A stretch of 64,000 bases of DNA. Origin: Escherichia phage fDHCT2. Within the stretch, counting starts at the first letter, position 1, and the number at the start of each line of letters is the position of its first letter. The notes beneath the pieces were generated by a model, which was given only the letters and a program-made list of their open reading frames with translations, did no database searches and was not told the DNA's origin. Position numbers and translations under genes: made by a program. This document shows positions 4,656-42,838 of the stretch, in pieces. The stretch is from sequence record OR427838.1. One strand, written 5' to 3'.

Positions 4656-4684
4656 ATTATAACATGGCTCTCGATAAAGTAAAC
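4656..4684 (-). promoter_or_regulatory. T4-type early promoter
   Basis: minus GTTTAC (4679-4684), 17 nt, TATAAT (4656-4661); -10 in loop of GAGAGCCA/TGGCTCTC repeat. Confidence 0.65.
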
Positions 4685-4686
4685 TA

Positions 4687-5238
4687 TTAATTCAATACAT
4701 TAACCACTGCACTACGAGGTACTACGCTAAAATCACCAGCATGTACAACGTTCAGGAGTTCAACACCATCTTCAATCCACTGGTCTGTTACCCAACCACA
4801 GATAGGATTATCAAAAGGACGACGGATAGCCACTGCAGCACACAGAAGGTCGGTAGGGTCTTGTTCGACTTCGACTTCACGGAAAAGCCCAAATTCAGCT
4901 TCATAGACTAGGATTTTCTCTACTTTGTTATTATCTAACCGGCGGCCATGTATTACGTAAGATTTAGTAAACCAGTCACTTTTGGCGAATTCTTCAACAA
5001 TAAATTCGCCTTCGCCAAAAACATCAGTCAGAGTTTTATAACCGGAAATCAAGGCCTTAGTTTTAATTTCAGGTTCAACCAGTTTGTAGGTTTTGCCGAT
5101 TTCGATAGTCTGAGTAGTCATAGCGGTTTCCTTAATTTCCAGTGGTTTAACAGGGCATACATAAGTGCTTAAAACATCAAAATCAATCAGTTTAGCTGCC
5201 GGATTCGGGGTGTATTTAGGGTTGTAATTAAATTTCAT
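4687..5238 (-). CDS. hypothetical protein, paralog of 4047-4613
   Basis: 183-aa ORF; see paralog. Confidence 0.6.
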   Translation of the reverse strand: MKFNYNPKYTPNPAAKLIDFDVLSTYVCPVKPLEIKETAMTTQTIEIGKTYKLVEPEIKTKALISGYKTLTDVFGEGEFIVEEFAKSDWFTKSYVIHGRRLDNNKVEKILVYEAEFGLFREVEVEQDPTDLLCAAVAIRRPFDNPICGWVTDQWIEDGVELLNVVHAGDFSVVPRSAVVNVLN

Positions 5239-12143: not shown

Positions 12144-12170
12144 CCAAAAAAGGAACCCGAAGGTTCCTTA
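12144..12170 (-). terminator. intrinsic terminator downstream of soc
   Basis: minus AAGGAACC-TTCG-GGTTCCTTTTTTGG. Confidence 0.7.
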
Positions 12171-12173
12171 TAA

Positions 12174-12407
12174 TTAAACTACTGGGGTCGGTGTGAACAT
12201 TGCTGCGTTCTTGGTCTTCCAGTCAGCAGCATCAGTCACTACAGTAGTATAGGCTGCAACGGCCGAAGGGAAAGTCTGATAATGAGAATCTGCAATACGG
12301 TGCTCGTTTGAATAAATCTCAAACGGGACAGACACTTCAACACCTTTAACTTCTTTACCTTCACCAGCTGGATGCGTAAAGGTTTTGATATTAACGAAAC
12401 CACCCAT
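12174..12407 (-). CDS. soc: small outer capsid protein Soc
   Basis: 77 aa; ...YVNIKTF...HYQTFPS... resembles remembered T4 Soc; late promoter upstream. Confidence 0.85.
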   Translation of the reverse strand: MGGFVNIKTFTHPAGEGKEVKGVEVSVPFEIYSNEHRIADSHYQTFPSAVAAYTTVVTDAADWKTKNAAMFTPTPVV

Positions 12408-25041: not shown

Positions 25042-27753
25042 TTAAAAGTCGAACATATCAAATAATGTTGCTTTTTTCTCGTAGTCGATTTTAGCAGACT
25101 CAGTAAAACCAGTCAGAGGCTTGATAAAGGTCTTTTGGAACAGTACGTTGTAGTCCATCCAACGGAGGACTTGGTCACGAATCTGAATCGGAAGTTCAAT
25201 ACCTGACGGCCACGCCATACAAGCTTCACCAAAAGGGTTGCCTTCTTTAAGCGGCAGCACATATACCTTTTCACCATCAACGATACGAGGCATGGTCAAA
25301 TCACCTGCAGAAGCACGCATGTAAGCTAAGCAACCTTTGATGTGATACGGACATTTAGAACCAGGGAAACCGCCTTCATTATATTTCTCGATGTTGTTAG
25401 CACTGGATACTGCAGCAATGCTTACATAGTTTAGTTCGTTAAATTCCTTATTAAACTGTTTGAAATACTCTTGCAAAGAGGCCTCGCCTTCTTGAAGCAT
25501 ACGACGGATACATTCTTTCAGTGCTTTCTGAACTGCTTTAGGTGTACTTGATTTCTGGGTTTCGAGGCCCATGATTTTCAAGTGTGGTTCGGCATAACGA
25601 GTACCTTCCATGTCCCAAACGTTCAGTGCATAACGTTTCTTGCCTGTCCAGAATCCACCAAGACCTTTAGAACCAAGTGGAGGACCAGCGATAGCTTCTC
25701 GGTCCATGAACATCAAGTGCTGTTTATTGTTCATGTATTCGCACATCTCACGGAAGCCTGCATCAATAGCCGGTTCCATACGTTCACGTGCAAATTTATC
25801 TAAGAAATCAACCCAGTGGTTAGTATCACGGAATTTATCTTCGCCTACTTTATTGATGATTGCGTCAGCCTTAACATAAATGGAGTCAGTATCACCATAG
25901 AGCACGAACTTCTGGTTTTCAGTCTTGCACACACCATTCAGATATTCGTTAACCTTACGTTCAATCCATTGGAGGGCCATTTGACCAAACAATGTGATTG
26001 CAGTCGCGTTCCTGAGGTCATAGTAACGGAACCATACGTTACCAAGTGCACCATAAAGGGAGTTGATAAGCAACTTACGGTTAATCTGAGCAGTCATACC
26101 TGCGACTTCAGTACGTTCGGCTTTGAACAACATTTCTTTTAAAGAAGATGCTGACAATTTTTTAATCTGAGCTTTGATTTCGTCAGAGAAGTCGAAACGA
26201 TAATCGATATCCAGTGGGCTATCAACAGACGGATTAGGATTTTCTAATGCTTCCTTAATTAACTCACCATTACGTTGAGCTGCAAGCATATAACCTTTAT
26301 GTTCTTTACGCTGTAAGAACACCTTCGTGATTTCTGTAGGAATCACGCCATCACGGTCTTTATAGTACATCATGCCGTTAGGAGAGCAACTGTAGGTGTC
26401 GCTAGGACGCGGAGCAGTTCCGGCAATATATTCATGTATCGGTGCGTTAGCGAATGTCCCTGCGATGGTCTCTGGGCTTATATTCACTTGTCGAATGATA
26501 CTCGGGTACAGAGATGTAAGGTCGAAACTCATTACATATTTGTACGCGTTAGGAATAGGTTCCTTAACGAAAGCACCTGGATAAGGTTGAACCGCATGCG
26601 ATTTGGCCTGAGGAATAACTTTACCCTGTTCTTTAAGGCTATTAAAGATAATAGCGTCCCAAGTCTTAATTGGACTGAACACCGACTGAATCTGCATCTT
26701 GGCATAGTAACCCATGTCCAGACTAAGAAGAATGAACTGGCGTTTCATATCAATCTGCACAACACGATATACGTCGATAATGTTATAGGAAATATATCGT
26801 TGGTGGTTCGTCTCACGTAACTTGGAGATAGGACCATCATATTTCAACTTACCTACTTTCAATTCATATTCAGAAACATAATCCAGAGAATAAGAAGGCT
26901 GGTTGGTAAAGCTGAATTTTTTATAAAGGTCGATATAATCCAGAACAGAGATACCGAACAGTGTAATAATTTCACGAACACCGTACATATTCTCGATAAC
27001 TTTAACACGAGTCTTACGATGCGGGCTTAATCGCTTAGCAGTGTTCTCACCAAACAGATTTTTCAGACGGTTATAAACGTATGGCACGTCAAATGATTCA
27101 ACGTTCCATCCAGTCAAAATCACAGGAGTTTTCTGTTGCCAGAAATTCAGATACTCAAGCATCATTTCTTCTTCAGAATTAAACGGAAGATAAACGATTT
27201 TGTCAATGATTTCTTGTGGAACTTCGTCACCACCTTCGTCTTGGAGTTTCTCAGCGATTTTAATCGACCACTCTTCGACCGTACCATAAGGTGAAACTAA
27301 AAGGTCAAATACATAGAATTTATCATCAATCGAGTCGTAGTGAGTAATGGCATCGATAGGATGTTTAGCCTGAGCAGGTTCAGGGAATCCATCAGGGGAT
27401 GTTACCTCGATGTCGAAGTTAGCAATACGAATCTTGGAAGAATCATACTTGATTTCTTTACGATAGGTATCAGACAAATAGGCTAATTTATAGTCGTCCA
27501 TACCAAGGGCTTCGAGACCCATATCGTCCATGCGCTTCATCCACTGAGAAGCATCGCGCATTGAATTGAATTCTTTCTTAACACAGCCCTTACCGTAGAT
27601 GTCAATATATTTTACGGCTTGCTCTGGGTTAGCATGCATAAACATTGTAGGCTTGTATGGAACTTCACGACTACGTTCGTTACCATTTTTATCGATGTAA
27701 CGTTCGAGAATATTATCACCGATTTGTTCGACTGTCAAATAGAATTCTTGCAT
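25042..27753 (-). CDS. 43: DNA polymerase gp43
   Basis: start at MQEFYLTVEQ (27753, RBS AAGGAAA); collinear with remembered T4 gp43 to ...LFDMFDF. Confidence 0.97.
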   Translation of the reverse strand: MQEFYLTVEQIGDNILERYIDKNGNERSREVPYKPTMFMHANPEQAVKYIDIYGKGCVKKEFNSMRDASQWMKRMDDMGLEALGMDDYKLAYLSDTYRKEIKYDSSKIRIANFDIEVTSPDGFPEPAQAKHPIDAITHYDSIDDKFYVFDLLVSPYGTVEEWSIKIAEKLQDEGGDEVPQEIIDKIVYLPFNSEEEMMLEYLNFWQQKTPVILTGWNVESFDVPYVYNRLKNLFGENTAKRLSPHRKTRVKVIENMYGVREIITLFGISVLDYIDLYKKFSFTNQPSYSLDYVSEYELKVGKLKYDGPISKLRETNHQRYISYNIIDVYRVVQIDMKRQFILLSLDMGYYAKMQIQSVFSPIKTWDAIIFNSLKEQGKVIPQAKSHAVQPYPGAFVKEPIPNAYKYVMSFDLTSLYPSIIRQVNISPETIAGTFANAPIHEYIAGTAPRPSDTYSCSPNGMMYYKDRDGVIPTEITKVFLQRKEHKGYMLAAQRNGELIKEALENPNPSVDSPLDIDYRFDFSDEIKAQIKKLSASSLKEMLFKAERTEVAGMTAQINRKLLINSLYGALGNVWFRYYDLRNATAITLFGQMALQWIERKVNEYLNGVCKTENQKFVLYGDTDSIYVKADAIINKVGEDKFRDTNHWVDFLDKFARERMEPAIDAGFREMCEYMNNKQHLMFMDREAIAGPPLGSKGLGGFWTGKKRYALNVWDMEGTRYAEPHLKIMGLETQKSSTPKAVQKALKECIRRMLQEGEASLQEYFKQFNKEFNELNYVSIAAVSSANNIEKYNEGGFPGSKCPYHIKGCLAYMRASAGDLTMPRIVDGEKVYVLPLKEGNPFGEACMAWPSGIELPIQIRDQVLRWMDYNVLFQKTFIKPLTGFTESAKIDYEKKATLFDMFDF

Positions 27754-27811
27754 TTCATTTCCTTTATAGACGAGTGATTGTCTTTTGTTTGTTGATGAAT
27801 CATTATACTCC

Positions 27812-27833
27812 AAAAAGGGACCGAAGTCCCTTT
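27812..27833 (-). terminator. hairpin terminator upstream of gene 43
   Basis: minus AAAGGGAC-TTCG-GTCCCTTTTT, followed by GGAGTATAATG. Confidence 0.6.
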
Positions 27834-27835
27834 GC

Positions 27836-28051
27836 TTAAATTTCTATTGTTTGACGTTTAATGGTTGAATTACCATCTTCGTCTTTAGTTTTAATCATAG
27901 CCTGGAAGACTTTCTGACCTGGATGTAGCAACTTATGGAGTTCTTTTTGAAATTCTATTTGGAGCTCTTCGGAAAGGTCAAAAACAGTTTGAGTTGGTGA
28001 AAGTCCGTATACCTCTTTAAGACGTTCACACATTTCAATTTCAAGAATCAT
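27836..28051 (-). CDS. hypothetical small protein
   Basis: track ORF trimmed to ATG 28051 to avoid overlap with regA; weak RBS. Confidence 0.4.
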   Translation of the reverse strand: MILEIEMCERLKEVYGLSPTQTVFDLSEELQIEFQKELHKLLHPGQKVFQAMIKTKDEDGNSTIKRQTIEI

Positions 28052-28052
28052 A

Positions 28053-28415
28053 TTAATTACCGATGGTATACTTAGACAGTAGTTCCCAGTCATTTTTCTG
28101 CTTAAAGGAAATGACACGGAAATTATTAGTGATTTCGAACAGCTCAGAGTCGTCTACGATATCAATCAGTCCCCAGTCCTTAAGAAGCTGGGCGATAGAA
28201 TCACGGCGTTGGTAGTCTTCACCATCGATATCTACCTGGCGACCGTCCATACGCAACATCTCTTTAAAGTGGACAATATAATACCGTCCTTGCTTTTGCA
28301 AAATGTGGCAGGATTGATATAGTTTCTTTTCTTTATTATTAGCGATACCCATACGAGTCAGGGTCTCTTTCACTTTTAGGAAGTCTTCAGGTTGCTTCAG
28401 AGTAATTTCAATCAT
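28053..28415 (-). CDS. regA: translational repressor RegA
   Basis: 120 aa; MIEITLKQPEDFLKVKETLTRMGIANNKEK... near-identical to remembered T4 RegA. Confidence 0.95.
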   Translation of the reverse strand: MIEITLKQPEDFLKVKETLTRMGIANNKEKKLYQSCHILQKQGRYYIVHFKEMLRMDGRQVDIDGEDYQRRDSIAQLLKDWGLIDIVDDSELFEITNNFRVISFKQKNDWELLSKYTIGN

Positions 28416-28421
28416 TTTAAT

Positions 28422-28994
28422 TTACCATTCCAATGCTTTCTTTTTCAAGTCTTTTTGTTCTTTCACATTTTTAGTTACGGATTTCAGGAACTCGTCCGTA
28501 ACCAACCCTTTCATCTTCTTAAGCATCGCCGGAAGATGGCCTTTAATTTTATAAGTCTCGAGATAACGATAAGCGTCATCATTATTAATTGAATGGTATT
28601 TCATCAATAAACGAGTAATAAAAACTACACTAACTTCATCATCATGGGCCTTAGCCCATTTACCAAATCTCTTACCCTTAGGAACAGCATGTAAAAGATA
28701 GTTGAAGTGACTTTGGTCGTCAAGTTTAAGACAGTTAACCATCGCGGCTTGCATAATGCAATCTACGTGTTGGCTCAAACTATTATCTAGCCAAAATTGA
28801 TTATAGTTTTCTGATTGAGCCAAGTTACGTTGGTTCTTACCATACGTGATGTCGTTCATAATGGCAAACAGTTCGTTTTCAGCCTTTTCTTTAAATGAAT
28901 CGGCTAAGGCTTGAATAGCAGCGTCGTTACGTTGTTTCCAAGCAACTTCATGTTCATTCAGTTCAACGTCATCATCAAAAAGACTTATAGCCAT
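28422..28994 (-). CDS. 62: clamp loader small subunit gp62
   Basis: 190 aa; T4 synteny regA-62-44-45. Confidence 0.9.
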   Translation of the reverse strand: MAISLFDDDVELNEHEVAWKQRNDAAIQALADSFKEKAENELFAIMNDITYGKNQRNLAQSENYNQFWLDNSLSQHVDCIMQAAMVNCLKLDDQSHFNYLLHAVPKGKRFGKWAKAHDDEVSVVFITRLLMKYHSINNDDAYRYLETYKIKGHLPAMLKKMKGLVTDEFLKSVTKNVKEQKDLKKKALEW

Positions 28995-29944
28995 TGGAGC
29001 TCCAGAGCAAGTTGGATAAACAGATAAGTCAGGTGAATTTCTGGGTTAGCAGCAATACCGTGGTATTGGTTATTTTCACCGACAATTTCGTACATTCTAA
29101 CAATGCTTGGCCCAGGCAATTTACCATAGAGTTCGTTAGCCAGCGACATAATAAAGTTGGAATAATCATTGACATGACGTGGAGCTAATGCACGGAGTTC
29201 TTTAAAGTTTTTATCTTTCAGTGCGGCCACTACTTCATCAATAGGCGAATTGGTATTCATTACAATACTCAAAATGCCTGTATCGATTTTACCACTTGAG
29301 GAATAACGGTCTAGTTGGTTAATTGTTTTACGGAAGTCAGGGAAGTTTTGTTTAACTAAAGCAGCAATAACTTTAAGGTCTTCGACTTCGATATTTTCGT
29401 TTTTACAAATTGCTACTGCACGATGAATCATTTCTTTCATCATGGCAGTTTGGTCAGCTGGAGTGGCTTCACCAAATTTAATTACACGGCAACGAGATTG
29501 AAGTGGACCGATAATACCATCAATATTGTTTGCTGTAATAATTACAGAACAGTTTGAGGAATAGGCCTCTAAGAATGAACGAAGGTGGCGTTGAGCTTCA
29601 GCAACACCAGCACGGTCGAATTCGTCAATAACAATTACCTTACGTTTACCTTCGATAGATTTAGAAGATGCAAAACGAGTAAGTTCGTTACGAACGAAAT
29701 CAATACGGCAGTCAGAACCGTTAACAAACAACATGTCTGAATTTGTATCAGCACACAATGCTTTAGCTACGGTAGTTTTACCTGTGCCTGGTGAAGCAGA
29801 GACTAGGATAATGTTAGGGATTAGGCCCTTATTAACAATTGCTTGGAGAGTTTCTTTATCATGAGCAGGCAGAATACATTCAGATAAAGTACCTGGACGA
29901 TATTTCTGTTCGAACATGAATTCATTATTATTTACTGTAAGCAT
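28985..29944 (-). CDS. 44: clamp loader ATPase gp44
   Basis: 319 aa; Walker A SASPGTGKTT, Walker B VIVIDEFD. Confidence 0.95.
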   Translation of the reverse strand: MLTVNNNEFMFEQKYRPGTLSECILPAHDKETLQAIVNKGLIPNIILVSASPGTGKTTVAKALCADTNSDMLFVNGSDCRIDFVRNELTRFASSKSIEGKRKVIVIDEFDRAGVAEAQRHLRSFLEAYSSNCSVIITANNIDGIIGPLQSRCRVIKFGEATPADQTAMMKEMIHRAVAICKNENIEVEDLKVIAALVKQNFPDFRKTINQLDRYSSSGKIDTGILSIVMNTNSPIDEVVAALKDKNFKELRALAPRHVNDYSNFIMSLANELYGKLPGPSIVRMYEIVGENNQYHGIAANPEIHLTYLFIQLALELQWL

Positions 29945-29981
29945 ATTAATTTCCTCAGGTTTGTTTTTACATTATACTCCA

Positions 29982-30000
29982 AGGGAGGAATATCCTCCCT
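29982..30000 (-). promoter_or_regulatory. stem-loop between genes 45 and 44
   Basis: AGGGAGGA-ata-TCCTCCCT 8-bp stem; minus strand continues TTGGAGTATAATG. Confidence 0.4.
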
Positions 30001-30005
30001 ATGCT

Positions 30006-30704
30006 TTAGAACGAGTGGCTTGAGCCTGCTTCCATGGCCAATACATAAGAAGCTTGTGAACCTTCAAACTTAGCTGCAAAACGAGCATCCTGACCTTCAC
30101 CGCGGGCCCATAACAACACATGATAATCGGCTGGCATCATTTTCATATTGGTTTTGTTAATGATGAACTTAAAGTCAGGACCATCATGGTCAGCTACTAC
30201 CAAAGAATACAGTGGACGAGTTAATTCTTTATCGTCGACTTGTTTATAACCGTTGATAACAATTTTACCATCGTCTACAGTGATTGCAAATGTATCAATA
30301 CTCAGACCAGAGGACACTCGCATCAGCTGCTGGTAATCTTCGGCTTTAAGGTCGAAAATAACTTCAGCCACAGGGAACGGGATAGCTTTGCTTGGGAATG
30401 CGATTGTGCTTGGGTCAGCAATAGGCCACTTAATTGTTGAACGTTGGTCTTTAATAATTAATGTGGTTTGGTCTTCACTTACCGAAACTTCAGCACTTTC
30501 CGATACCAAAGACAGAATACTTAAGAAGCCATTCAAATCATAGATTGCTGCTTCGATATCGAAGGTGTCGCTTACAGTGGCTTCACCATAACTTGCACCG
30601 GTAACAGATCGGGTCAGAATGGTGTTACCTGGTTTAAGCATAATGCCTGGGTTAATACCGGAGAAGTTTTTAAGAATGTTCAGGGTTTCTTTAGAGAATT
30701 TCAT
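30006..30704 (-). CDS. 45: sliding clamp gp45
   Basis: 232 aa; collinear with remembered T4 gp45. Confidence 0.95.
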   Translation of the reverse strand: MKFSKETLNILKNFSGINPGIMLKPGNTILTRSVTGASYGEATVSDTFDIEAAIYDLNGFLSILSLVSESAEVSVSEDQTTLIIKDQRSTIKWPIADPSTIAFPSKAIPFPVAEVIFDLKAEDYQQLMRVSSGLSIDTFAITVDDGKIVINGYKQVDDKELTRPLYSLVVADHDGPDFKFIINKTNMKMMPADYHVLLWARGEGQDARFAAKFEGSQASYVLAMEAGSSHSF

Positions 30705-30728
30705 AATGTTTCCTTATCAAGTCAAAAA

Positions 30729-31142
30729 TTAAGCAATAACGATCATTTGTTTACGGATTGATTCAGGCAGAGATTCAATATACTCTGGAATCTGGGAAGC
30801 AACAATAGCGCCGGCTTCAAGCAACTGCTCATCAGGGTCGACGCAATAATCATCTTCTAAACGTTCAGAACCGTCGCGGTCGATAACAAGTTTAGCACCT
30901 GCAGCCAGTGAATCATTATAATGGCGACGCATAATTTCTACCCACTTATCAGATACGTCGTTATCAATAATACCGTAGAGCATGAACTTAGTTTCTTGTG
31001 GAAGAGACTGCAATCGACGTGCGGAGTTGGTATCAATATTCAGTACCCATGATTTACGGATACGGTTCTGATTATGTGGGTTGGAATCAGTACGGATTGT
31101 TTTAACTTGGATATCTTTAACGGTAATAGCGTTAGCAAACAT
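30729..31142 (-). CDS. rpbA: RNA polymerase binding protein RpbA (by position)
   Basis: start chosen at MFANAITV (31142); T4 synteny 45-rpbA-46. Confidence 0.6.
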   Translation of the reverse strand: MFANAITVKDIQVKTIRTDSNPHNQNRIRKSWVLNIDTNSARRLQSLPQETKFMLYGIIDNDVSDKWVEIMRRHYNDSLAAGAKLVIDRDGSERLEDDYCVDPDEQLLEAGAIVASQIPEYIESLPESIRKQMIVIA

Positions 31143-33073: not shown

Positions 33074-33294
33074 GTATTGTTCTCACGAATTGTTTGTTCA
33101 GCATATTCTAGCATTTCTTCGGAAGAAGCAAACACGTCGTCAAGTTCCATGGCCCATGAAACACCTTCAGAATATTCAGAAGTGACATACATAGTTCCGG
33201 TATACCAAGAACCATCCACGTCCCATTCTACATTACCGAACCAGCCATCGCCAATATGAAAATCATGTTTATACATTTTCATCATTATAAGCAT
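33070..33294 (-). CDS. hypothetical small protein
   Basis: 74-aa ORF. Confidence 0.5.
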   Translation of the reverse strand: MLIMMKMYKHDFHIGDGWFGNVEWDVDGSWYTGTMYVTSEYSEGVSWAMELDDVFASSEEMLEYAEQTIRENNT

Positions 33295-34691: not shown

Positions 34692-34734
34692 ATGTTCTCC
34701 TCAGTTGGTTCATTTTATCATCCGAATATAAAGC

Positions 34735-34757
34735 AAAAAAGGAGCCTAAGCTCCTTT
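34735..34757 (-). terminator. intrinsic terminator
   Basis: minus AAAGGAGC-TTAG-GCTCCTTTTTTGC. Confidence 0.65.
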
Positions 34758-37445: not shown

Positions 37446-37475
37446 ATTATACTCGGGTCCCAAGAGTTTGTAAAC
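37446..37475 (-). promoter_or_regulatory. T4-type early promoter
   Basis: minus GTTTAC (37470-37475), 18 nt, GAGTATAAT; -10 in loop of GGGACC/GGTCCC repeat. Confidence 0.6.
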
Positions 37476-37675
37476 TATTTTTGTGCTAATGCGCCTTTCC
37501 AACCTTCATACATCATTGCGGCCGATATTAATATTGCTCCTGAGCATTTTGAATATTTGTTATTCCAAAACCAGTTTAGAAAAACTTCATCATCAATACC
37601 TTGGGCTATCATATTTTCAAAGAACTGACGTCGAGATTCAGCAATTCGCTGTGATAATTTAGATTCAGGATTCAT
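37475..37675 (-). CDS. hypothetical small protein
   Basis: 66-aa ORF. Confidence 0.45.
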   Translation of the reverse strand: MNPESKLSQRIAESRRQFFENMIAQGIDDEVFLNWFWNNKYSKCSGAILISAAMMYEGWKGALAQK

Positions 37676-42808: not shown

Positions 42809-42838
42809 ATTATACTCCATCCGTCCTTGGATGTAAAC
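42809..42838 (-). promoter_or_regulatory. T4-type early promoter
   Basis: minus GTTTAC (42833-42838), 18 nt, GGAGTATAAT, CCTTTTATCAAC. Confidence 0.65.

Follow-up and report, generated by a model that had tools for sequence, protein, structure and literature searches.

Intercistronic hairpins followed by a shared -10-like motif upstream of genes 43 and 44 in a JS98-like Dhakavirus

Two intergenic elements in the replication gene cluster of a JS98-like Dhakavirus, each with a strong hairpin followed by the 10-mer GGAGTATAAT, are probably this phage's versions of the intercistronic control signals of the T4 replication cluster 45-44-62-regA-43. The element upstream of gene 43 (site 1) is best read as one of a known kind, a Dhakavirus counterpart of the T4 P43 promoter and the hairpin that precedes it; this module is thus already known T4 biology and is not new. 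The element between genes 45 and 44 (site 2) consists of the hairpin conserved at that junction and, behind it, a -10-like copy restricted to certain lineages. The sequences, orthology, conservation and covariation, and terminator scores given below were computed, and the position of the T4 P43 start is taken from the literature; we infer the start site in the present phage, the efficiency of termination, MotA dependence, and the stabilising role of the site 2 hairpin.

Organization of the replication gene cluster

The DNA analysed is a single 64-kb stretch (the window), of which the 27000-31000 region is 97% identical to JS98-type phages (Dhakavirus, Tevenvirinae), identifying its source as a JS98-like Dhakavirus and a T4-type phage. 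The minus strand carries, in order, genes 46, 45.2, rpbA, 45, 44, 62, regA, an orf47-like ORF and 43, of which the following border the two elements or lie between them:

30006-30704, minus strand: gene 45
28985-29944, minus strand: gene 44, with its ATG at 29944
28053-28415, minus strand: regA
27836-28051, minus strand: small orf47-like ORF between regA and 43
25042-27753, minus strand: gene 43, with its ATG at 27753

This gene order, together with the identity to JS98, places the two elements at the orf47-43 and 45-44 junctions of the T4-type replication cluster. Genes motA and asiA are annotated in JS98 (97% identical over the region) and both lie outside the window, and regB is within it (53932-53477), with a product 98.7% identical to JS98 RegB.

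Two hairpins followed by the same 13-mer

The initial annotation had described a hairpin joined to GGAGTATAAT upstream of both gene 43 and gene 44, and the sequences are exactly as it gave them. The features of site 1, all on the minus strand, are:

27838-27836, minus strand: stop codon TAA of the orf47-like ORF, read from the sequence
27833-27814, minus strand: hairpin AAAGGGAC (27833-27826) / TTCG (27825-27822) / GTCCCTTT (27821-27814); as RNA, AAAGGGAC / UUCG tetraloop / GUCCCUUU
27811-27802, minus strand: GGAGTATAAT, preceded by TT and consisting of GGAG (27811-27808) and TATAAT (27807-27802), with G at 27801
27797-27795, minus strand: predicted gene 43 transcription start, placed by the T4 P43 start and a normal -10 to +1 spacing
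27783-27768, minus strand: gp43 translational-operator hairpin (AGAC / AAUCACUC / GUCU), in the leader of the predicted P43 transcript
27764-27760, minus strand: Shine-Dalgarno sequence AAGGA of gene 43, between the operator hairpin and the ATG at 27753

Those of site 2 are:

30008-30006, minus strand: stop codon TAA of gene 45, read from the sequence
30000-29982, minus strand: hairpin AGGGAGGA (30000-29993) / TAT / TCCTCCCT (29989-29982), 5 nt past the gene 45 stop; as RNA, AGGGAGGA / UAU / UCCUCCCU
29980-29971, minus strand: GGAGTATAAT, preceded by T and consisting of GGAG (29980-29977) and TATAAT (29976-29971), with G at 29970

The sequence GGAGTATAATG accordingly occupies 27811-27801 at site 1, after the hairpin and TT, and 29980-29970 at site 2. 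The 13-mer TTGGAGTATAATG occurs twice in the window as an exact copy, compared with 0.07 copies expected even with one mismatch allowed, and each copy lies 1-2 nt past a strong hairpin. The shorter GGAGTATAAT has three exact copies in the window, all on the minus strand; with one mismatch it has nine, compared with 5.2 expected, which is not significant. The best hairpins have energies of -10.9 kcal/mol (site 1) and -12.5 kcal/mol (site 2), neither of which was matched in 150 junction shuffles, a control that applies to the window's two junctions alone. A search of Rfam assigned no family, all matches having E > 1 and lying far below the gathering thresholds.

The third exact copy of the 10-mer belongs to one of three early-type promoters with the common form GTTTACA, 17 nt, (G/A/C)GAGTATAAT:

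42814: early-type promoter, GTTTACA-17-GGAGTATAAT
40530: early-type promoter, GTTTACA-17-AGAGTATAAT
37451: early-type promoter, GTTTACA, 17 nt, CGAGTATAAT

The promoters at 42814 and 40530 had been cited at the outset as early promoters that also carry the motif, and both are real in form, with GTTTACA 17 nt from the -10. GAG precedes TATAAT at 5 of the 70 TATAAT sites, all on the coding strand: the three early promoters and sites 1 and 2. The motif is not the extended -10 that it had been taken for; TGn is absent at both sites, where the bases at -15/-14 are GA, and GAGTATAAT is merely a common -10 context of T4-type early and middle promoters. Both hairpins do cover the place of a -35, as had been proposed. 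No -35 is present at 16-18 bp at either site, and a sigma-70 consensus scan of the window for this reason lists neither.

The hairpin upstream of gene 43

A stable tetraloop hairpin is found at the position of site 1 in all lineages compared, with loops that are mostly of the UNCG type (TTCG, TACG, TCCG; the exceptions are TTAG, GAAA and ACAG). Across 16 lineages 94.5% of stem cells are paired (72.6% in shuffles), seven of the eight pairs show double (compensatory) changes, and the covariation score is 0.618 compared with 0.199 for shuffles, none of 500 of which reaches the observed value; slid controls score at most 0.20. Counts of this kind, here and at site 2, favour structure, because each hairpin was picked by folding.

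The GC core is followed by UUUUU, giving a marginal terminator prediction (T-score 3.8, d = +3.9) by the d'Aubenton-Carafa T-score and decision score d, which are approximate as applied here with Vienna energies. TransTerm did not call a regA-43 terminator in RB69 (the supplementary file mentions regA once, for RB43), and a consensus terminator scan of the window reports site 1 in the plus-strand reading only. The site 1 hairpin is probably a weak intrinsic terminator or attenuator and a 3'-end stabiliser of upstream transcripts. A MotA-box-like TTTGCTTAAA on the reverse strand at 27831-27840 has no -10 at a suitable spacing and is taken as a chance occurrence, and neither site matches the late promoter TATAAATA, both as judged from sequence.

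A predicted gene 43 promoter

The hexamer at site 1 is TATAAT or TAAAAT in 16 of 16 lineages, representing about 10 genera, and in the lineages compared it is always followed by the operator hairpin, a Shine-Dalgarno sequence and the ATG. The gp43 translational operator has been described (PMC3014915), and its GACnAAUnACUCGUC-type hairpin is conserved across all Tevenvirinae loci compared. In T4 the regA-43 junction reads TAAGC-AAGGGGC-TTCG-GCCCCTT-ATTT-GGAGTATAAT-ATATCAA, and then continues into the gp43 operator hairpin. The middle promoter P43 has its start at 29933 in Hinton's table of mapped T4 middle promoters, and base 29933 in the T4 record lies 4 nt past the TATAAT of GGAGTATAAT. Of the other five starts mapped at the same locus, four sit 6 nt after their -10 and that of P46 about 7 nt, and these spacings calibrate the T4 start coordinates. 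The TATAAT at 27807-27802 is thus best read as the -10 of a predicted gene 43 promoter orthologous to T4 P43. The suggestion of a combined terminator and promoter is borne out to this extent at site 1, where the T4 regA-43 orthologue has a mapped P43 start and the hairpin has a marginal terminator score.

RNA-seq of a T4 motA mutant places genes 45, 44/62 and 43 in a strongly MotA-dependent stretch, downstream of Pe35.3, the last early promoter. The MotA box consensus is (a/t)(a/t)(a/t)TGCTTtA, located 12+/-1 bp upstream of the -10; background scores have a mean of 3.2 and a 95th percentile of 6.0. Site 1 has no canonical MotA box, its best score at 11-13 bp being 3.5. The sole MotA-box-like core is in the hairpin loop, AGGGACTTCG (core ACTTCG), which lies 14 bp from the -10 and scores 5.5, below the 95th percentile of background. 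T4 P43 has GCTTCG at 15 bp, though it is classed as a middle promoter.

Comparison of the lineages reveals two layouts. In the compact layout (T4, Dhakavirus, Mosigvirus, Gaprivervirus, CHI14, L019 and L022) the gap between the hairpin and the -10 is 5-9 nt, and most of these lineages have a CTT core in the loop alone, as (G/A)CTTCG, which is 13-15 bp from the -10 and scores 5.5-6.5; the loops of CHI14 and L022 have no CTT core. In the extended layout (Jiaodavirus, Karamvirus, MHG19, L037 and L026) 18-21 nt separate the end of the hairpin from the -10, and the intervening DNA contains MotA boxes at 11-13 bp, namely TTTTACTTTA, CATTGCTTTA, TTCTGCTAT(C/T) and TCATGCTATT, with scores of 6.5-9.0. 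Because the window junction is compact, the hairpin DNA overlies the -30/-35 region of the gene 43 promoter. T4 P43 is itself of the compact class, is mapped, and belongs to the MotA class, and site 1 is therefore best read as the same promoter. MotA dependence would then be expected in the window phage too, and the DNA of the UUCG loop may act as the MotA box in the compact layout.

Under this arrangement, the UUCG-tetraloop hairpin with its U5 would, as RNA, end or attenuate the upstream transcripts (45-44-62-regA-orf47) and shield their 3' ends, and in the DNA the TATAAT located 6 bp further on would be the -10 of the gene 43 promoter. P43-type transcripts would have their 5' ends at about 27797-27795 and the gp43 operator hairpin as their first element, so that polymerase synthesis would have its own promoter and its own translational feedback.

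The 45-44 junction

A hairpin is located a few nucleotides past the gene 45 stop in 18 of 18 distinct junctions tabulated, and its stems are wholly different among lineages (GGGAGGA, GGGAGC, GGAGAC, GGGGC, GAGGGC, GGATGGTC and others); within Dhakavirus the stem is fixed and the loop alone varies (TAT, AAT, GAT, AAA). Paired cells make up 86.8% of the stem across the 18 lineages (60.4% in shuffles), double changes are seen at all eight of its eight pairs, and the covariation score of 0.735 (0.237 shuffled) was reached in none of 500 shuffles. The hairpin in the window is not terminator-like, being followed by UU only (T = 1.9, d = -21). The hairpins at this junction have T-scores of 3.4-4.0 in CHI14, JEP8 and AS-gz, which are terminator-like, and of 1.0-1.7 in T4. 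Since it has no U-tract, the site 2 hairpin most likely works at the RNA level, and from its position and conservation its most likely role is that of an mRNA 3'-end stabiliser or attenuator separating 45 from 44-62-regA. It would form a 3'-end barrier or weak attenuator, such that gene 45 mRNA outlasts or outnumbers the 44-62-regA portion. Switching of its 3' arm, as an anti-Shine-Dalgarno sequence, onto the gene 44 Shine-Dalgarno sequence when a terminating ribosome blocks the 5' arm was considered and rejected, the alternative pairings being inconsistent among lineages.

The -10-like hexamer at this junction has a much narrower distribution. A perfect TATAAT is restricted to Dhakavirus and the T4-likes, in the latter within a different context and with no GGAG. 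The nearest lineages read GGAGTATTAAG (L019, L022-24), GGAGTACAAAG (SP18) and GGAGTATTGAG (L040), in all of which GGAGTA is kept and the essential T at -7 is lost. No MotA box is found at site 2 (score 3.5, background level), and the 58 mapped T4 middle promoters in Hinton's table include none for gene 44. The entire 45-44 module is absent from L018, a close (Dhakavirus-level) relative, which has in its place some 480 nt of coding sequence in which a weak NUMOD3 motif suggests a homing endonuclease; L020 has a similar insertion. The comparison thus does not support a promoter at site 2, given the decay of the hexamer, the lack of a MotA box, -35 and TGn, the lack of a T4 gene 44 promoter, and the loss of the module in L018, and the same grounds leave the proposal of a combined terminator and promoter unsupported here. 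The comparison with T4 that had been suggested for both junctions likewise yields a mapped start, that of P43, at regA-43 and no mapped counterpart at 45-44. The GGAGTATAATG behind the site 2 hairpin is a lineage-specific feature and a candidate promoter element, and its GGAGTATAAT may serve either as a weak promoter inside the cluster, for 44-62-regA, or as a GGAG signal acting in the RNA.

Alternative explanations

A genuine second promoter at site 2, 'P44', with the architecture of P43 (hairpin DNA across the -30 region, GGAGTATAAT as the -10), would permit transcription of 44-62-regA independently of gene 45. The 13-mer here is identical to that at the orthologue of a mapped promoter and has equal geometry, GAGTATAAT is promoter-associated both in the window phage and in T4 P45.2, and the T4-likes independently retain a perfect TATAAT straight after the 45-44 hairpin; its presence in both the T4-likes and Dhakavirus could mean a real, unmapped promoter. 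The reading is nevertheless doubtful, with no -35, TGn, or MotA box above the background score, the loss of T(-7) in L019, L022-24, SP18 and L040, the absence of the module from L018, no gene 44 entry in the T4 list of 58 mapped middle promoters, and a lack of early promoters in this region of T4. Stability or processing of the mRNA, the latter raised at the outset as the alternative reading, is more likely at site 2 than a promoter, possibly with RegB cutting at the GGAG. In its full form, which applies to both sites and which we consider unlikely, this alternative has RegB and S1 cutting the unpaired GGAGUAUAAUG 3' of each hairpin, between G and A, in read-through RNA, so that a protective hairpin would close the upstream message and a 5'-OH would open the downstream one, and the dosage of 45 relative to 44/62 and of regA relative to 43 would be set in this way; on this view the -10-like hexamer, at any rate that of site 2, would be coincidental or of secondary importance. 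Such cleavage is compatible with the intercistronic control signals favoured here and is not exclusive of them. Strong RegB/S1 sites, as given in the account of Durand et al. (2006; PMC1702504), have the form GG*AGRAYARAA on single-stranded RNA, with A6, A8 and A11 the most conserved, and the rules applied here were a single-stranded GGA with G or U at 4 and, over the next 7 nt, A at 6, 8, 10 and 11, Y at 7, and no C at 5, 6 or 9. The window encodes regB, and each hairpin has, 1-2 nt to its 3' side, a GGAG that the minimum free energy folds leave unpaired; at both sites this GGAG is followed by UAUAAUG, such that the unpaired GGA, G4, A6, Y7, A8 and R9 are right, although U10 and G11 are wrong. 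The resulting score of GGAGUAUAAUG is 4.5/7, which is mid-rank among the 44 non-coding GGA[GT] motifs of the window, where canonical RegB-type Shine-Dalgarno sites read GGAGAACAAAA. The T4 orthologue GGAGUAUAAUA also carries A11, a stimulating effect of RegB processing on gp43 synthesis has been reported, and the hairpin at site 2, having no U-tract, would need a nuclease for 3' ends to arise there. Most GGAGs of T4 middle transcripts are, however, reported to be resistant. The study of Durand et al. covered every intergenic GGAG of T4. Conservation bears on the two sites differently. At site 1 conservation of the GGA falls short of that of the -10: Gaprivervirus has GTAG, CHI14 has GGGG, and L026 lacks the motif. 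The promoter is therefore the main constraint on this site. At site 2 the clade of Dhakavirus, L019, L022-24 and Gaprivervirus retains GGAGTA while the -10 decays and the stems change completely, and this outlasting of the -10 by the GGA is the main argument for an RNA-level function of GGAG in the clade, although GGAG is missing at 45-44 in T4 and most genera.

Two other readings concern the origin and the coding of the modules. In phages RB49 and phi1, PeSLs combine an early promoter with a stem-loop, which in some classes overlaps the -35, and the JS98 g43 locus has been said to contain PeSL-like sequences (Arbiol et al. 2010, PMC2839356). If the present modules were PeSL-type recombination cassettes, their main significance as promoter and stem-loop repeats would be as homology patches for shuffling or gene conversion, and the common 13-mer would be a product of conversion and not of functional selection. 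Besides these published precedents, close relatives differ in whether they have the small ORF upstream of site 1, homing-endonuclease-like insertions are found at 45-44 in L018 and L020, and a stem-loop lies between the upstream stop and the downstream Shine-Dalgarno sequence at both sites. Similarity of the modules within a genome is also slightly greater than across genomes (8.29 vs 7.10), but the difference is not significant (permutation p = 0.087), leaving concerted evolution of the two modules, or gene conversion between them, unsupported. Neither site has a strong sigma-70-like early promoter with a -35, a -10 and an AT-rich upstream (UP) region, the modules sit in the conserved replication core, outside any hyperplastic region, and a crossover between the direct repeats would remove the essential genes 44 and 62, all of which make this reading very unlikely. 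The idea that GGAG-N4-AUG serves as ribosome binding site for a very short upstream ORF, through which translation of the next gene is coupled or gated, is scarcely credible and largely refuted, as the start codon is not conserved: JS98 has ATT for ATG at site 1, and T4, Mosigvirus, L019 and Gaprivervirus have no ATG there. The spacing of GGAGTATAATG does suit a Shine-Dalgarno sequence and AUG, and RegB sites at putative Shine-Dalgarno sequences of very small ORFs figure in the account of Durand et al. (PMC1702504), but the two 'ORFs' are alike in their start codon alone; site 2 reads AUG-UAA (29972-29967), and site 1 opens a 22-codon ORF that overlaps the gene 43 start.

A bolder reading, which is quite improbable as a whole, treats each site as a dual-coded 35-nt module. 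As DNA it would consist of a -10 and the loop (G/A)CTTCG, which replaces the MotA box in the compact junction, and as RNA it would be a signal for 3'-end formation or processing, made up of the hairpin and the unpaired GGAGUA and acting through termination at site 1 and through RegB/S1 cleavage 2-5 nt past the U-tract-less hairpin at site 2. The stoichiometries of clamp to clamp loader and of RegA to polymerase would be set in this way, and in the clade of Dhakavirus and Gaprivervirus RegB cleavage would have replaced the intrinsic termination used by other genera at 45-44.

Relationship to known systems

The closest counterpart of site 1 is T4 P43 with the regA-43 C(UUCG)G hairpin, which occupies the same place, after regA or the small ORF and before 43, and has the same order of stop codon, UUCG hairpin, T-run, GGAGTATAAT, about 20 nt, operator hairpin, Shine-Dalgarno sequence and ATG. 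The 10-mer is identical and the differences in the stem are compensatory (AAGGGGC in T4 compared with AAAGGGAC in the window). The window has a spacer shorter by 1-2 nt, ACTTCG in place of GCTTCG as its loop core, and the extra small ORF between regA and the hairpin. The T4 start is mapped, and that of the window phage is predicted from it.

Site 2 resembles the T4 45-44 UUCG hairpin in its position past the gene 45 stop and in having TATAAT directly after it; it differs in its stem, GGGAGGA/UCCUCCC with a 3-nt loop in place of the T4 UUCG tetraloop, and in its GGAG, which T4 lacks. RB43 and Aeh1 have TransTerm-predicted '44<--45' terminators, whereas the 45-44 hairpin of the window has no U-tract. 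The PeSLs of RB49 and phi1 (PMC2839356) are alike in being intergenic units between a stop codon and a Shine-Dalgarno sequence, with a stem-loop terminator and a sigma-70 -10, but the window sites have no -35 or AT-rich upstream region and are in the replication core; moreover, PeSLs are early promoters, and the T4 orthologue of site 1 is a MotA-dependent middle promoter. RegB/S1 targets (PMC1702504) share with the two sites an unpaired GGAG and an A/U-rich stretch fitting positions 6-9, and regB is in the window. The sites differ from them at positions 10-11, are not Shine-Dalgarno sequences, and are located in a cluster of middle genes; GGAGs in such a setting are for the most part reported to resist RegB.

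For annotation of JS98-type phages, the comparison places a predicted gene 43 promoter, a terminator-like hairpin and the gp43 operator, and across T4-like genera the gene 43 promoter has two layouts, one compact with the hairpin over -30 and one extended with a separate MotA box. Because the 45-44 copy is not conserved as a -10, caution is warranted in reading every hairpin followed by TATAAT as a promoter. RNA processing at site 2, if true, would mean that the ratio of clamp to clamp loader is tuned without a terminator, which would be of interest to T4 specialists and would introduce no new principle.

A further hairpin in the same gene cluster of the window abuts a canonical MotA box:

34757-34712, minus strand: hairpin AAAGGAGC-TTAG-GCTCCTTT, MotA box TTTTGCTTTA, 11 nt, TAAAAT (P47-like)

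This shows that the arrangement of a hairpin followed by a middle promoter recurs in the gene cluster.

The regA–43 junction

The following minus-strand features lie around the site 1 hairpin (27814–27833) upstream of gene 43:

27836–28051, minus strand: small orf47-like ORF between regA and the hairpin
27768–27783, minus strand: gp43 translational-operator hairpin, AGAC/AAUCACUC/GUCU
27760–27764 and 27751–27753, minus strand: Shine-Dalgarno sequence (SD) and ATG of gene 43
27738–27803, minus strand: 22-codon ORF opening at site 1 and overlapping the gene 43 start

The operator hairpin, located ~12 nt downstream of the predicted start of the middle promoter P43, is retained in every Tevenvirinae locus examined, and its loop in the window differs by a single base from the UAAC-type loop of T4 and RB69. 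The orf47-like ORF varies in presence even among Dhakavirus-level relatives and is missing from L017. The sequence directly 5′ of the hairpin nonetheless ends in AAGCAA with or without this ORF (the window, T4 and the related loci L017, L024, L040 and L043), and in most lineages the end is A(A/T)TTAAGCAA; this common end suggests that recombination at the junction inserted or deleted the ORF.

The 45–44 junction

29967–29972, minus strand: start-stop mini-ORF at site 2, GGAG-N4-ATG-TAA
L018 3021–3503: inserted ORF, in frame with gene 44
L020 2906–3496: inserted ORF

The mini-ORFs of both sites are probably incidental, as the site 1 ATG is ATT in JS98. Many 45–44 hairpins (window 29982–30000, Mosigvirus, L019, L022, MHG19 and JEP8) resemble an SD in their 5′ arm (GGAGG/GGGAG) and an anti-SD in their 3′ arm (CCUCC/CUCCC). 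If the 5′ arm is blocked, the 3′ arm finds another partner, which is the GGAGUA further downstream in the window and L019 and the gene 44 SD in L022, and this alternative pairing has no consistent pattern across the lineages compared.

This junction is a hot spot for insertions: in relatives, its intergenic module is replaced by an ORF of 161 aa (L018) or displaced by one of 196 aa (L020). A weak NUMOD3 motif in each (E ~0.006–0.008, below the Pfam cutoff) suggests that these are homing-endonuclease genes.

Other promoters and hairpins

The T4 middle promoter P45.2 (around record position 33257) contains ATGCTTTA, 11 nt, and TATAAT preceded by AGAG; GAGTATAAT is therefore also present in a canonical MotA-dependent promoter. 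Four features of this kind are located in the window:

37446–37480, minus strand: T4-type early promoter, inverted repeat around the -10
4656–4690, minus strand: T4-type early promoter, inverted repeat around the -10
34712–34757, minus strand: hairpin AAAGGAGC-TTAG-GCTCCTTT and P47-like promoter
~12146–12174, minus strand: predicted intrinsic terminator, GGAACC-UUCG-GGUUCC and U6

Both early promoters contain GTTTAC(A/T), 16–17 nt, and TATAAT, with -10 regions flanked by the repeats GGGACC..GGTCCC and GAGAGCCAT..ATGGCTCTC, and each is followed directly by GGATTATAAA. They fit one class of RB49/phi1 promoter-early stem-loop (PeSL) cassettes, that with a stem-loop overlapping the -10 (Arbiol et al. 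2010, PMC2839356). The 34712–34757 hairpin abuts a canonical MotA box (TTTTGCTTTA) followed by 11 nt and TAAAAT and is, judging from its sequence, a textbook junction of terminator and middle promoter. The ~12146–12174 hairpin with its U6 is a clean predicted intrinsic terminator on the minus strand; read on the plus strand, it is followed directly by TATAAT.
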